From a virus (lineage: Duplodnaviria; Heunggongvirae; Uroviricota; Caudoviricetes): DNA of 19,066 nt. The stretch lies in IMG/VR virus record IMGVR_UViG_2698536657_000009; one strand, written 5' to 3'. Shown here piece by piece: positions 1 to 12,000 of the stretch (position 1 is its first letter; each line of letters begins with the position of its first letter). The position numbers are program-made.

Positions 1-3000
1 GCCATCAGCGCTGGTCAGGGTTCCGTCAGAGTTCACACCAACTGTCGTTCTGGAATCTGTATATTCACGAGACTTTTTCGCTTCGACTACAAGGCGGGTA
101 TTCGTATCCTGAGCCAGTTGCTCAACACTGTCTTTTACACGGTCAACCTGACGAACGGTTGCTGCATCTGAGGGACGAGTACCGTCACTCAGGCCACCAA
201 GCACACGAGTTTTATAAGCCTTGCCCGCTTCTTCTACGTAGCCGATATAAACTTCATTATCACGGGTAGTGTGCGCTCTCGCCCCTAAAGCAACACTATT
301 TCTATGAGAAACTTCCGCTCTGCTTCCCAGTGCAGTGCCTTCGGGGGCATTTTCACCCACAACAGAGCTGCCCCCTAATGCCACGCCATAAACGGATGAA
401 TCATCCACATGAGAAAAACTTCCCAACGCGGTTGAACCATTAGCATAAGCCTGCCCCCCACTTCCTAATGCAGTACTCTGTCTCCCATGAGCACTAGCCC
501 ATGAACCAACAGCTGTTGAATTCTTTTCCTCCGCCGCTGCACCTTCTCCAACAGCCAGAGCGAATTCGCCCACCGCACTAGCCTGAACCAAAGGGTCACC
601 TTCCGGACGTGGTCCTGATGCGATGAAATCCGATTGTTTTAATACTTCAGGATTAATAATAGTATTTGATAGATTATTAACTTTATTGAAGATCCGGCGG
701 ACCTCCTCCTCATCAACCTGATGCTTACCGTTTTCTTTGTCAGACGTTCTGAGGCCTGCTGCCATACGGGCGAAGTCTTTTAGCACAGGCTCATGAACGG
801 TATATGCAATTGAGTTATCTTTACTCAATACTATAATATTACCCTCCTGATCGAAATTAAAAAGGGTCTCATCTTTTCCGTTCAGAACATATCGCATTGT
901 TCCCCAACCAGAGGATTTGTTATAGTAAATACGATAAGTACTACCGTGTATAACAGACGAAGCATCTGCCTCTTTCAGCACTGAATAAAAAGGCAAACCA
1001 GAATCTTTGATAGGAGGTAACTCCTGAGCTAAAACACCTGAGCTGATCCCAAGCAGAAGCCCACCCAGAGAAGATGACAGAAGTGTCTTTGTGAATTTTT
1101 TACTCATTATGGATATCCTGTTAAATTATCTGTATACAAATCAGCCGCAACACCTCATACTCATAAAGAAATATGATTAATTACGGCTTTATTCAGGATA
1201 TTCTGAAAATGATCGTGATTATTAATTTTAAATAACTAGGAATTATCTTACTATATTCTTGGTGTATTCACTCCTGAGACATAGAGCAACGTAGGAACCG
1301 AAATAAGAAAAATCTTACCCTCATCAGGCATGACATTTCACATCTGCTTACACTGTAATTTCTGATCAAGATCACAACATTATCCGAATTTAAATGTTCA
1401 GTTCATCTACAATATTTCCCTGCGTGACTTTATATCAGCCCCGTACATCCGTACGGGGCATGTTCTTTACTCCACTCCCACTTTTTTGTTGTACTCGCGG
1501 TTAAACCGATCCACGGCAATTTTCATATCCCGCTCAACCGATTTCACCATCGCCGACTGTTGCGCCAGACTGAGAGTACTGTCGGCGTAAATGGCATCAC
1601 GCTGTTTACGCAAATCCTTCAGTCTCTTCCGGGTATCCTGCATAAGCCCGTTCATCGACAATTTTCCGTTGTTCTCGTCAATGAACGCCGTTCTTTCTGC
1701 ACCGGTCAGACTCTTCAGCTCTGCGTGATACTGCGCGACCTCCGTCATCCGGTCGTACATCTTCTGCTGGTCAGCATACGGCATCACCTCACCTGAAATT
1801 TTCCCCAGGAAGGGCACCTGCTGCTCCGGTATATCAATACCATTCAGCGATTTCACCGCCGCATCCGTGGTTTTAGAAATGAAGCGCCCGGTCCCGCCAG
1901 AGATATAGTCAATCCAGAATTTCAGCGATTCCGGTGTGATATCCACCGCGCCGGGACGGTACTGGCTGCCACCAGAGAACGCATTCAGCCAGGATGCAAA
2001 CGCCTTGTACGCTTCTGGCGTTGAACGTCTTCCCAGCTGGCTGTCAGGTTTTGGTGTACCAAACGGCATGTTCTCCTGGTAAATCTGCGCCCCCATGAAG
2101 TTTTCATTCATGGCAAGGTTCGCAAACGGACGCAGAATGGTCGGCGCTGCATTTTTCAGCAATGCCCCGGACAGTGTTTCCGACGTCTCACTGCCAATCG
2201 GGCTGAATGCACCAAGCACACCACCAACAACATTACCGGCAGCACGGGACGCCGTCAGGTCACCCGCCGCCACACCTTCAGCGGTATGCCCGAGCAGGAA
2301 GAAAACGTTGTACCCGTAAGGCAGAGGAATACTCCAGTACTCTCCGGCCTTGCCCCCGAACATCGATTTCATAATGACGAGGTTACGCTCTTTCACATGA
2401 GACGGCACCTTGTCATACCAGTTAACCCCGTCATCATCCTCCCCCGCAACACTGCGGTTAAGCGAGCCAAGCAGATAACCCGCTCCCACAGCTGCAAGCG
2501 CGATTTTCTGCGGTACATTGAGATTCTTCCAGCGAAGGCGCTCCAGTAACGGCCCGTCGCCATTAAGATGTCCGAGCGTTCTCACCAGATTTGCCGTTCC
2601 CTGAATACTGGCGTTGGCGAACATGTACAGCGAGTTCATCAGCGCCCCCTGCTCACCACGACGGTTAAAGTTCACCGTCATGTTTTTGGCAAGAGACGCC
2701 GCCTGCTGGCGTGACAAACCGGCATCACGGGCGTGTTTATAAGCTGACAGACGCAGTGCGTTTTCAACCGCGCCGTTGGCATCCTCGACCAGGTTCAGGA
2801 ACGAATTCCATGCACCGATACTCTGGCCTTTCCATCCCCCCTTCGCCAGTGAGACAAGGCGATCCATTTCCTTCTGCTGGCCTTCAAGGTCACCCATGTT
2901 AAACCAGCCGGTTTTGCCTCCGTCCTCAACAAACTCTTTCCACACCTTCTGCCACTGTGTACCTTTGCCCGTGAGAGTTTTGCCTCGCAGACTGGCGTAC

Positions 3001-9000: not shown

Positions 9001-12000
9001 GGTGACTGCGCCAGCTCAGAGTAATCCGCATTAAGAACAGCATCTGCTGCCGCCATTGCACTCTGCCCCTGTGCACTGGCTGTGGAATGGGTGATCAGGC
9101 CCGCCTGGAATAAATCCGGCATTTTTTTATCGACAGCTTCTGCTGCCAGTGCCGTGGCTCTTTCCGGCTGCATCCCTGCCGCGATGTATTTTTTCTCCAG
9201 CCCGGCGGTCAGCATTTTTCGCAGTGTGACATCACCCACCTTTTTAGCCACACCGCCAACAACCATATCAGGTACAAGCGCACCAATCAGGTTTACACCC
9301 TTCGCCACCCAGACCGCAGAATCATCATAGCCTTCGGTCATCGGCGTATTCAGCGCACGAACAGCACCCGGCGACATCTTACCGGTCAGCCATTCATCCG
9401 AGGCTTTAGCACCATCACTGACTGACTTGCCTGTGACCTTCAGACCTTTACCGACAGTATCAGTCACCGCGTTTTTCCCTGTTCCATCGGGAATGTTTTT
9501 AATCGCATCTCCAACAGAAGGTGGTGCGCCCAGTTCCTTTTGCGTGGAGGAAGGCGGCATGTAAACATCCGTCATGAAAGACGACAACCCGGCAAGCGTT
9601 TTTACAGGATTATTTACAAGTGCATCACCGAGTCCACGGGCCATTTCCCCTGTTCCCCGGACGGACTGGGCGAAACCTTTACCCATTGTTGGCAATACAT
9701 CACCGAGGCTGAACGATGTGCTGTGATCAATGGCATTCTGCGGGTTGCTGAAAAAATCCTGCCAGTAATTTTCTCCCGGCTGCTTAATGTTCAGGCTGCT
9801 GCGGTTCTGGTTACCCAATTGCGCTTCAGGGCGCTGCTCATCTGAAAAAGCCATACAGACTCCAGTAAAAAAAAGCCCGACACGATGGTCGGGCGTAAGT
9901 GAACGATATTAACGGGGAGCGCGTTACTGCCGCATATCTTTACTTCATCCAGCCTTTGATCTTCTCGGCAGCTGCGGAAGCGCTATAATCCAGCGCCTTT
10001 TCATGCTCTGCCTTTTTATCCCGGAGGTGATTCTGGTAATAAATTTCCACCTCCTTTTCACGACCAGGTTCCAGCAAAGCAGGCGCATTGGCGGCAGCCT
10101 CTTTTACAAACTCCTGTTTAACCGGATCGCCCGCCGCCCACGGCTGCCACTTCTGTAAAAGCTGTTGCGTTTTCCGTTGCTGAACTTTCTGTTGATGCGG
10201 CAGTGAATCATACGCTGCTAAAAACTCATCATTCGCAGCCTGAGCATCACGGCCATCCTTGATCGCCTGAGCCACTACTTTGCTGGCTTCCTTCTGAAGC
10301 TCTTTCAGAGAAAGTCCCTGCTGCTTCGGCATGAAATAACCATAATTTTTCGATATCTCTGCAAATTTGCTGCGATCCCTGACCTGAGCGATAGCCTTAT
10401 CAACGGGTATCGCCAGCACGGTTTGATCATCAGGGTGCGCACTGCCGTATTCTGTTACAGGTTTATGCGCGGTGGAGCCATCGCTGTATGTGAGATCAAG
10501 GCCAATAAGTACGTACCCTTCCTGCTGCGCCGGTACGATACTGCCAATCCTGGCCTCTTTTATCGTTTTTTCCCCGGTTGAATCAGGCATGCCAATACGC
10601 TGTTGTAGTTCCGGGGCAAACACGCCGGAAAGCACATCGAGATTTTCCGGGGTATTCAGCGAATCGATCGCCATGTCCGGCTTATCACCAAAGATTTTTT
10701 GCAGGTTGATCACGGCCTGACCCGCTTTCGCTGCATAGCCTTCGTTTGACATAAGAATTAATGGATGTCCCTTTGGCAGCTGCCCGAACAGACGCGTTGC
10801 AGCCTCCTGATCGCCAGCCTCAATTGCTTTTCCAATCGCTTCCATTAGTGGCTGGCTATGGGCAATCATATCGTTATACTCAAGCCGTCGCTGGTTGTAT
10901 TTCTGCAACTGGAGTCGTTGCTGTTCCATCCCCAGCGACGCATTCCGGTAATTCTGGTTGGCGTTAAACTCCCTTTCCTGCAGTGTGTAATTGCGGTCAT
11001 CAACTTTGGCTCTGTAATCAAAGTTCCGCTGATCAACGTCTTTATTATGTTCAAACTGAGACTGCGCAAATTCAAAATCGCGCTCGTTATTTTTCTGTTG
11101 CTGAGCAAGCTGTGCTTCTCGCAAACCAAGCTCCTTACGACGGGTCATTGCCTGATCAACAGTGCTGAATCCAGCAAGTAACCCCTGTGCAAATCCGCTC
11201 ATTCACCACTCCTTAAAACAAAGCGCCTGCAATGCCGCCAATTACTGCACCAGCAACAGCGCCGACGGCTGTCCCCACTACCGGTACTGCTGAACCAACA
11301 GTCGCCCCGATAGTGGCCCCCGTACCAATGCCCGTACCGATATTCTGTTTTTTCTGAGCTTTCTGTTGAGCAGCCAGTTGTTTATTTGATGCCTCAATCT
11401 CTGTACGTCGTCTGTCTGCGTCACTTATTCCCTGTAATGCCTCACGCCGCGACTGATTTGCAATATCCAGTAAACCGTATCCCATATTGCCCCCTTACGC
11501 TGCCACCAGTTGTCCGCCAACACTCAGTTTCTGTCTTGCCGGTGCAGAAGCCCCCGTCAGAATATTCATCTGGCGATCCTGTTCGGCTTCACGGATACCA
11601 TTTTTCGCGCCAGCAATTGCCAGGGCATTACGTAACCCCAGCGTATTACTGTCGGGATTATCCGGGCGGTTTACCCCGTATCTCGCCATCTGGTTATCCT
11701 GCGCCATCTGCGCTGTACGGAGACTGGAAGTGGCAAGGCCTCCCACCCGTGCAAGCTGTGCATTCATCAGACTGTTGTTCTCCCCAAGGTCAGCCAGCCT
11801 TGCTACACGGGGTAAATATCTGGTGCGCCAGTCGTCGTATTGCTGGCGGGTCAGCGCTGCGGATGTCTGCCAGTCCCCCTGAGGGCGGGCTGCTCCGGTA
11901 TAACCGTATCTTGCAAGTGTTTCGTATTTACCGTACTCCATAATCACAGTCTCCAGTTCTGAGCCTGATGCTGAATGGCATTAGCGCCGGTGCCAGGTGT

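Follow-up and report, generated by a model that had tools for sequence, protein, structure and literature searches.

The window analysed here is a stretch of 19,066 nucleotides (nt) from a virus of the Caudoviricetes (Duplodnaviria; Heunggongvirae; Uroviricota), IMG/VR record IMGVR_UViG_2698536657_000009. It contains a single gene of 8.4 kb that encodes a protein of 2795 amino acids (aa), and the question raised by this locus is what such a giant protein does for the phage that carries it. The question reaches beyond one record: Shiga toxin (Stx) genes are spread by short-tailed Stx phages, and the giant gene takes up ~14% of their genome. The reading preferred here, with a probability of roughly 0.6, is that the protein is a packaged and ejected pilot-plus-effector, i.e., a polyvalent protein of the phage type.

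The frame at 1467-9854 carries zero internal stops according to both the open reading frame (ORF) listing and the translation, as stated in a preliminary description of the locus, which had singled it out as an uninterrupted gene and the largest of the window; its location on the minus strand was not given in that description. It is about five times longer than the second-longest ORF of the window (563 aa). An open frame of this length cannot be due to chance, the probability of 2795 random open codons being (61/64)^2795 ~ e^-134. The parts of the gene and its product that are referred to throughout are the following.

1467..9854, minus: giant ORF, 2795 aa, ATG start; orthologue of 933W ST933Wp72, P13374 ORF78, and phi24B gp47
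9375..9854, minus: N-terminal variable patch, aa 1-160 (aa 1-200 in 100-aa bins), 68-77% identical to relatives
8475..9347, minus: N-terminal module, aa ~170-460, with a hydrophobic helix (aa 181-207) and a Gly-zipper-like segment (aa 405-432); phrog_37568
6855..8474, minus: acidic, Pro/Glu/Gln-rich stretch of low hydrophobicity, aa ~461-1000, from the composition table; presumed flexible linker
6258..6707, minus: LPD5, aa 1050-1199 (Pfam PF18799, E = 8.8e-45)
5778..6257, minus: predicted zincin-like metallopeptidase core, aa ~1200-1359, with H1262, HEWFH 1283-1287, and D1290
5538..5777, minus: LPD1, aa 1360-1439 (Pfam PF18796, E = 1.8e-23), with the E1374/R1378/E1381 helix
4860..5429, minus: second HExxH domain, aa ~1476-1665, with HEIIH at 1550; helical and conserved where present
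4239..4787, minus: swapped module, aa ~1690-1872; MuF-C/PBECR, predicted RNase fold of the RelE/BrnT/CdiA-CT kind
1467..4214, minus: C-terminal module, aa 1881-2795; mostly helical and conserved as a unit
1806..2423, minus: LPD38, aa 2478-2683 (Pfam PF18857, E = 3.8e-48), within the C-terminal module

The giant gene in Stx podoviruses and their virions

Megablast of the window retrieved 204 phage records, 152 of which cover at least 80% of it, the best at 96-97.5% identity. Nearly all of these are Stx-converting or related short-tailed phages of Escherichia coli and Shigella (Sepvirinae), including P13374, phiON-2011, ArgO145, phi191, and 933W-type phages, to which the window is ~97% identical. 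The gene order in P13374 and 933W is the same as in the window. Judged by its sequence, the window is a Stx podovirus of the 933W/P13374/phi24B type with a non-lambda virion module; the lambda frame of side-tail-fibre and b-region cargo, in which the preliminary description had placed the gene, was thus abandoned.

The giant gene is present in every listed Stx-phage record (at least 186 phage records), and its conserved C-terminal segment was found in 426 of 5426 complete E. coli genomes. RefSeq annotates the product as an LPD5/LPD38 domain-containing protein (P13374 D300_gp78, 'LPD5 domain-containing protein'; 933W ST933Wp72, 2806 aa). The latter also bears out the earlier suggestion that Stx-type phages have an ORF of similar size. 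PHROG 616 (phrog_616) matches the giant protein over its full length and carries no function label. A 2025 paper on the proteomics of phages of enterohaemorrhagic E. coli does not mention the protein; a 2026 preprint on virion structure does. Databases and literature already contain the gene, its class, and its association with virions, and the locus is no new or uncharacterised system as had been supposed. What the present analysis contributes is an architecture of chassis plus cargo, a single zincin core to which both LPD5 and LPD1 are assigned, support at the level of the fold for the RelE-like module together with its rare swapped allele, and a C-terminal module without a solved relative.

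Evidence from virions is available for the orthologue in phage phi24B. gp47 is abundant in phi24B virions and absent from the cryo-EM and negative-stain reconstructions, and the authors propose that it is an encapsidated ejection protein (2026 bioRxiv 10.64898/2026.04.10.717836). According to the supplement of this preprint, the count of peptide-spectrum matches (PSM) for gp47 is the second-highest in purified virions (10,962), mainly from the uppermost gel bands, and the gel shows mostly high-molecular-weight species with a trailing smear. The gp47 peptides given there lie at aa 204-222, 1222-1233, 2080-2091, and 2719-2787. From the batch sample (746 PSM over the 2811 aa of gp47, 101 PSM over the 724 aa of the 12-copy portal), tens of copies per virion are suggested, which is a rough spectral-count estimate and not a measurement. 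The orthologue is thus a major virion component, in agreement with the virion role that had been proposed from the sequence.

The same supplement reports gp48, gp50, and gp51 in phi24B virions, together with an 86-aa protein, the counterpart of the gene at 11213-11485, at a low level, which was scored as a contaminant by the authors. Since the counterparts of four of the genes between lom and the giant gene occur in the virion preparation, the giant gene ends the virion module. Hence, it does not lie in an accessory arm, as had been described, and instead closes the block of internal virion protein genes; the appearance of an accessory location arises because a block of moron genes splits the virion module into the needle gene on one side and the internal-protein genes on the other.

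Two more distant proteins that contain LPD38 point in the same direction. A CRISPRi-ART screen and follow-up plaque assays showed that efficient infection requires PTXU04_00025 (2198 aa, with LPD38 as its sole annotation). JC1 gp69 (4515 aa, LPD38) ranks second in the virion proteome of phage JC1, whose portal, capsid, and head-closure proteins are 933W-like.

End modules and predicted central enzymes

The giant protein is conserved at both ends among proteins that otherwise differ. A word-based search with the N-terminal 470 aa returned only relatives from Escherichia and Salmonella; the distant giants emerged by an exhaustive HMMER search of aa 1-470 against 1.84 billion representatives, which yielded 103 proteins that are matched at their N terminus. 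Most of these are 2000-4665 aa long (~60 such giants). Five of them were scanned for domains: three end in LPD38, and two contain LPD39 near the end. Their middles are unrelated and consist of MuF-C; an Sbno-like ATPase; a methyltransferase; ddrB-ParB with LPD5 and LPD1; and an Eco57I methylase with an SNF2 helicase.

The C-terminal module shows the same behaviour. Over its last 915 aa, the giant protein can be aligned from end to end with proteins from metagenomes and prophages (93-100% coverage, 32-58% identity), and the domains upstream of the module differ among these relatives (methyltransferases, ART-PolyVal, LPD3, or LPD5 with LPD1). About 40 columns of the alignment are invariant, most of them Asn, Arg, Gly, Pro, and aromatic residues. 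An AlphaFold2 (AF2) model of the module (predicted local distance difference test, pLDDT, 84.4; predicted template modelling score, pTM, 0.79) is mostly helical with one β-rich insert; no solved structural homologue was found for it. The module is also encoded on its own, by genes that close clusters of virion genes; in one such cluster, a 213-aa gene separates it from a preceding ART-PolyVal protein of at least 3166 aa. Based on these comparisons, the architecture is that of a conserved N-terminal module, a variable cargo, and a conserved C-terminal module.

A further stand-alone LPD38 gene (962 aa) was observed on a 60-kb contig (L005; JGI 3300075516, 1-12889), where genes for 320, 601, and 1370 aa directly precede it and a crAss_MUZ_C (crAss-type muzzle) domain is found in the protein ahead of these. 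The arrangement suggests that the C-terminal module is used by crAss-like podoviruses as well. The 1370-aa protein was considered as a split-off N-terminal part and rejected, as it shows no similarity.

Between the N-terminal module and the central domains, the composition is net-acidic, poor in hydrophobic residues, and rich in Pro, Glu, and Gln from about aa 440 to 1000, as had been described. The stretch at aa ~461-1000 is 95-100% conserved among Stx phages and matches no Pfam family. The hydrophobic Gly-rich segments that had been claimed for the C terminus are likewise present: helices that are Gly/Ala-rich and moderately hydrophobic occur in the C-terminal third, e.g., aa 2447-2469. The candidate membrane segments (aa 181-207, 405-432, and 2447-2469) are all Gly/Ala-rich, and soluble helical packing is predicted for them in the AF2 model.

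Pfam assigns four domains to the giant protein (LPD5, LPD1, MuF_C, and LPD38; E = 1e-23 to 1e-48), all of which were defined by Iyer et al. 2017 (PMC5512222) in their description of polyvalent proteins. The chain is multi-domain, carries signature domains of the class, and is encoded at a late/virion gene location, so that its earlier assignment to the polyvalent class is well supported at the sequence level.

The metallopeptidase-like motifs that had been recognised before correspond to HExxH, which occurs twice, as HEWFH (aa 1283) and as HEIIH (aa 1550). In an alignment of 37 homologues of aa 1001-1900, L1281, H1283, E1284, W1285, H1287, D1290, and F1293 are invariant, as are Y1368, E1374, A1377, R1378, and E1381; H1262, Y1263, and E1264 are near-invariant. 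Conservation is thus at least 90% for each of H1262, H1283, E1284, H1287, D1290, E1374, and E1381. In the phage-type clade of metallopeptidases (MPTases), strand 2 is described as ending in a conserved His, and HExxH as being followed three residues later by an Asp (PMC5512222); both the clade-specific His (H1262) and Asp (D1290) are present. Since the conserved residues fit the 'widely distributed phage-type MPTase', LPD5 and LPD1 are taken to flank one zincin core rather than to be independent domains without a role. The E1374/R1378/E1381 helix within LPD1 is likely the helix that provides the third zinc ligand of the peptidase.

The AF2 model of aa 1001-1900 has a mean pLDDT of 77.6 and a pTM of 0.49. 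The confident domains are joined by low-confidence linkers, which, together with the low pTM, is consistent with domains loosely linked like beads on a string. The secondary structure of the core is predicted in the order strand, strand, HExxH helix, Glu helix. Its structural neighbours are the protein endopeptidases MtfA, lethal factor, Pro-Pro endopeptidases, and SprT/Wss1, so that the modelled core agrees with a zincin fold. The scores of the structure comparison are modest and Foldseek was not significant; both fold groups recovered, zincins here and RNase toxins for the module described below, match two independent sequence-based predictions, namely HExxH and PBECR for MuF-C. The second HExxH domain gave a sub-threshold match to Peptidase_M76.

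Searches for other functions gave negative results. With relaxed thresholds, Pfam detected no peptidase, lysozyme, methylase, helicase, or polymerase family on domain-sized pieces. No tape-measure, tail-fibre, or RNA polymerase family was matched in Pfam or PHROG, and the absence of tape-measure and RNA-polymerase motifs noted before thus holds. As a podovirus, the phage has its nozzle, needle, and fibres encoded by other genes. Lysozyme, transglycosylase, and M23/M15 peptidoglycan hydrolases were missing from the Pfam matches, PADLOC gave no match, and nothing significant was found among Protein Data Bank (PDB) chains with the whole protein or with profiles of its central and C-terminal thirds. 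Full-length homology to a characterised structural protein was not found in Pfam, PHROG, or PDB chains.

These results bear on the idea that the giant protein is a purely structural part of an ejectosome, i.e., a trans-periplasmic conduit with a peptidoglycan-digesting metallopeptidase and no effector role. Such a conduit was proposed for gp47 in the phi24B preprint (10.64898/2026.04.10.717836), podoviruses require ejected proteins that span the envelope, and the abundance of gp47 in the virion, its invisibility in the map, and the Gly-rich hydrophobic helices in both conserved end modules all agree with it. The digestion of peptidoglycan is unsupported, however, because no family of such hydrolases (lysozyme, transglycosylase, M23/M15) was detected and the neighbours of the HExxH domain are protein endopeptidases. 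The 'MuF-C metallopeptidase' of the preprint conflates two domains, because MuF-C has an RNase-toxin-like fold. A conduit also leaves unexplained why one module is replaced in an otherwise identical protein and why relatives carry unrelated enzymatic middles. We consider a purely structural role improbable.

The replaced module was identified by a residue-level comparison in 100-aa bins with 933W, P13374, phiSTEC1589, and the chromosomal copy of JNEC-KY176, which has the same downstream junction as the window. Outside two regions, the giant protein is 96-100% identical to these four relatives in each bin. One region is the N-terminal variable patch; the other, aa ~1690-1872, is an island of 35-40% identity to the common Stx-phage allele. 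Its edges are abrupt (...RSGKPDPFK and KIL.PEDIRKGPYYS...), and the island is exactly the MuF-C/PBECR domain, with Pfam MuF_C (PF18819) matching aa 1748-1846 at E = 5.9e-23. The fold neighbours of its model are RNase toxins: BrnT (6.7), RelE (6.3), and CdiA-CT (6.2), followed by ParE, YoeB, HigB, and colicin D (5.0-5.5). Family profile and predicted RelE/BrnT-like fold thus both point to MuF-C/PBECR. A second mosaic region was observed at aa 1001-1200 (window 6255-6854), where one large class of E. coli alleles is 50-82% identical and then returns to 96-100%; examples are P0126 and P0128, of which P0128 represents a cluster with 465 members.

The module allele of the window is rare. Among phages, it occurs in 1 of the 186 gene-carrying records (PhiR5_2), and at ≥99% identity it was found in 4 of the 5426 complete E. 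coli genomes; six further E. coli genomes have module alleles at 75-78% nucleotide identity. In the Salmonella homologue P0013, the module is 66-84% identical to that of the window, as opposed to 33-45% for the common E. coli allele, whereas in the flanking regions the common E. coli allele is nearer to the window than P0013. Hence, the module has moved horizontally. Across 40 non-redundant alleles, including both of E. coli, the motifs TPxVL..LGAPDL, K-A, K-H, LPEL..DP.AV, A.H, and N.IASVYG are kept, with a Lys and two His. In view of these motifs, the module looks constrained rather than decaying and possibly is an active RNase; Mu F itself is thought to be inactive. At the C-terminal module boundary, GLQLP (aa ~1860-1866, window ~4257-4277) is at least 70% conserved across the 40 divergent alleles and is a candidate for a site of processing or of recombination. 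Downstream of the giant gene, no immunity-like ORF was found; only implausible ORFs of 20-36 aa precede the next gene, which is YadA-like.

A fast-evolving, horizontally exchanged RNase-like module looks like an arms-race signature and thereby also fits a dispensable, DarB-like anti-defence accessory, which would be packaged and injected solely to protect the DNA or to disable immunity, with no role in assembly or delivery. Counter-defence roles are predicted by the polyvalent-protein concept, and the C-terminal module is shared with PHROG 10089 ('DarB-like antirestriction') and with the DarB-like giants of Bcep22 and JC1. The shared part is, however, the chassis and not the anti-restriction enzymes: the methyltransferase and helicase domains that define DarB are missing in Pfam searches of the whole protein and of pieces, and PADLOC gave no match. 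Dispensability agrees poorly with a gene that is kept in every listed phage record and in 426 E. coli genomes, with 96-100% identity to four relatives outside two patches, and with the requirement for an LPD38 protein if a laboratory host is to be infected efficiently. We regard a role in anti-defence alone as unlikely, albeit the least unlikely of the alternatives to a packaged pilot-plus-effector.

Expression signals and gene neighbourhood

The following features surround the giant gene (strand as assigned).

16523-18214: nozzle-like gene, first of the listed virion genes ahead of the giant gene
15258-16526: tail-tip/needle gene (Pfam Phage_Tail_Tip)
13517-14251: lom (Pfam Ail_Lom)
11944..12594, minus: ~216-aa Gly-rich protein; its phi24B counterpart, gp51, was detected in virions
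11495..11947, minus: 150-aa protein without Cys; its phi24B counterpart, gp50, was detected in virions
11213..11485, minus: 90-aa protein whose C-terminal helix is a glycine zipper; 'bacteriocin' is a frequent annotation for it in related phages
9940..11202, minus: 420-aa Gln-rich protein without Cys; its phi24B counterpart, gp48, was detected in virions
9875..9894, minus: terminator-like hairpin (GCCCGAC-CATCGT-GTCGGGC and then T8), 12 nt ahead of the ribosome-binding site (RBS) of the giant gene
1438..1459, no strand: perfect 9-bp palindromic hairpin, GCCCCGTAC ATCC GTACGGGGC, 8 nt past the stop of the giant gene

In the order of transcription, the nozzle-like gene and the tail-tip/needle gene are followed by three moron-type membrane protein genes including lom, by five small genes, and by the giant gene, whose described position downstream of the tail-tip and lom genes is thus confirmed. 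The 563-aa ORF was initially taken for a terminase, which was wrong; it corresponds to the nozzle or 'internal virion protein' gene. The moron block (13517-15243, minus) has a GC content of 41-44% and encodes a 92-aa outer membrane protein, a 205-aa membrane-associated protein, and Lom. A 46-aa ORF at 13146-13286 (minus), MSQKSLITVTICMTVIFTIWMLHGSLCEFRLNLWGAEFAAFLQCKQ, resembles Hok/Gef-type membrane toxins and takes the position at which P13374 has its 'MokW-like host killing' gene; a Sok-like RNA above the Rfam gathering threshold was not found, and Rfam gave no match over the whole window. For the 90-aa protein, matches to Bacteriocin_IIc and to a Gly-zipper family are sub-threshold; its glycine-zipper helix and its place among the internal-protein genes suggest a putative membrane-active ejection component.

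The giant gene starts at an ATG preceded by the RBS GGAG at a distance of 7 nt. The hairpin at 9875-9894 is kept in STEC1589, JNEC-KY176, P13374, and 933W, with one compensatory change of the stem from A-T to G-C. In 933W and P13374, the annotated start is an ATG within the hairpin, ahead of the better-placed RBS and ATG, and this different choice of start codon explains the lengths of 2806 and 2795 aa. A search upstream of the giant gene revealed no sigma-70-like promoter. This result and the hairpin in front favour expression only by antiterminated late transcription, and the hairpin may restrict expression to Q-antiterminated late transcripts. Past the stop codon, the hairpin at 1438-1459 has a T-rich tail on the plus strand only and thus may terminate convergent transcription and not the late operon.

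The giant protein contains no Cys among its 2795 residues, and the versions of 933W and P13374 contain two. Zero Cys are also found in the upstream neighbours of 420, 90, and 150 aa. The ~216-aa protein probably starts at an ATG, residue 26 of the listed 241-aa TTG ORF; with this start it is free of Cys, as both Cys of the listed ORF precede the ATG. From the Cys content of the non-internal proteins of the window (1.15%), ~32 Cys would be expected in the giant protein. Their absence fits threading through a narrow channel into the oxidising periplasm, which is a suggestion of our own and not an established rule.

Beyond the giant gene lies the 5' part of a gene for a YadA-like trimeric autotransporter adhesin (1-1107, minus; signal peptide MSKKFTKTLLSSSLGGLLLGISSGVLAQE), which runs off the window. 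Its start lies ~360 nt downstream of the giant gene, and the stretch ~500-1500 is low in GC. In JNEC-KY176, the genes after the YadA-like one are a 157-aa gene, a gene for an autotransporter peptidase of the S6 family (SPATE), and then chromosomal rcsD. The junction of the giant gene with the YadA-like gene was found at ≥98% identity in 3 of the 5426 E. coli genomes; 933W and P13374 have other sequence after the giant gene (the usual prophage end) in place of the YadA-like gene.

With moron genes nearby (lom, the outer membrane protein gene, the hok-like gene, and the downstream YadA-like adhesin) and toxin-like folds in the giant protein itself, a virulence or fitness factor expressed by the lysogen, i.e., a secreted toxin or adhesin of the moron type, has to be weighed. 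The giant protein has no signal peptide, however: inspection of its N terminus (MAFSDEQRPEAQLGNQ...) revealed no signal-like hydrophobic stretch, as had already been noticed. No sigma-70-like promoter was found for the gene, a terminator-like hairpin is directly 5' of it, its orthologue is a major virion protein, and the family was found only in phage virion gene clusters. Expression in the lysogen as such a factor is therefore highly improbable, in contrast to late expression as a packaged pilot-plus-effector.

Proposed role and comparison with known systems

The course of events proposed for the packaged pilot-plus-effector is as follows. The giant gene, with which the virion module ends, would be expressed late on the Q-antiterminated transcript, and its product would be packed with the DNA inside the T=9 head in roughly tens of copies. 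Upon release of the needle, it would be expelled through the short tail. Herein, the N-terminal module (aa ~170-460) and the ~900-aa LPD38-containing C-terminal module would form a chassis that is required to get the protein into the head, out through the tail, and across the envelope. The centre would carry enzymes like beads on a string: the LPD5-HEWFH-LPD1 zincin, the second HExxH domain, and the exchangeable module with the RNase fold. After delivery, the peptidases would most likely cut the polyprotein itself or host proteins, and the RNase-like module would most likely act on host RNA at the very start of infection, under diversifying pressure.

Several points weigh against this proposal. 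The experiments on close orthologues are those of virion proteomics; ejection, channel formation, self-processing, protease and RNase activity, and essentiality are what we infer. The evidence for essentiality comes from a distant LPD38 relative in a different phage. Since gp47 is found mainly in the top gel bands, processing inside the virion would be at most partial. Membrane insertion is not evident, because the hydrophobic segments reach Kyte-Doolittle values of only ~1.2-1.5, and no Pfam peptidase family reaches the threshold on the giant protein or its pieces.

A further-reaching version is put forward tentatively, as we consider it more doubtful than probable. According to it, the end modules, for which there is no solved structural relative, would be an unrecognised packaging and ejection chassis common to many podoviruses, and the middle would be a slot for exchangeable injected effectors. 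In the window, this slot would hold a rare RelE/CdiA-like RNase that is cut free in cis by the zincins near GLQLP and acts on host RNA. If true, the chassis would be shared by 933W-like, Bcep22-like, Kuravirus-like, and some crAss-like podoviruses; the same logic would apply to the giant proteins of many other podoviruses, and the system would correspond, in phages, to the polymorphic toxin systems, would be housed in an ejection protein, and would evolve as modules are exchanged. It would then also be a natural scaffold for protein delivery into Gram-negative cells. For experiments, the analysis yields two mutable active-site motifs, natural alleles of the RNase-like module, and two end modules.

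Among known systems, the closest are phi24B gp47, 933W ST933Wp72, and P13374 ORF78, which are the same gene at the same last position of the module and with the same Pfam architecture. The copy of the window differs from these in the N-terminal patch, the MuF-C/PBECR module, and the downstream junction.

The polyvalent proteins (PMC5512222) are alike in combining zincin, PBECR, and LPDs on one large chain that is encoded with virion genes; LPD38 is listed there as phage-type-specific. In contrast to that description, which treats the LPDs as separate domains of unknown function, LPD5 and LPD1 of the window protein are proposed to flank one peptidase core. In addition, LPD38 (~200 aa) is part of a ~900-aa unit that is always C-terminal, and a second conserved module is N-terminal.

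No homology was found to the characterised ejection proteins T7 gp14-16, P22 gp7/16/20, and N4 gp50-52. The layout proposed for the window protein nevertheless resembles that of the N4 virion RNA polymerase gp50 (~3500 aa), a giant single chain that is encapsidated, ejected, and organised like beads on a string. In gp50, the N-terminal region serves injection, the centre is enzymatic, and the C-terminal region, of which a zincin-like domain is a part, serves encapsidation. The window protein differs in having no RNA polymerase domain, and its end modules have no detectable sequence or fold relationship to those of gp50. N4 furthermore has the separate characterised ejection proteins gp51 and gp52.

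P1 DarB, Bcep22 gp75, and JC1 gp69 are virion-packaged giants, of which the Bcep22-like ones share the C-terminal LPD38 module; their phages have 933W-like portal, capsid, and head-closure proteins. Compared with DarB-like giants, the window protein has neither the methyltransferase and helicase nor the lytic transglycosylase of JC1 gp69, and its link to DarB is limited to the C-terminal module, which matches phrog_10089.

Polymorphic toxins (CdiA-CT, Rhs, and the colicin D/E5 tips) share with the window protein the BECR/RelE-like fold, an exchanged module with sharp edges, and a conserved giant carrier. In those systems, the toxin module is C-terminal, whereas that of the window protein is internal and has no adjacent immunity gene. 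Delivery would herein be by ejection into the prospective host of the phage itself, as opposed to a competitor.

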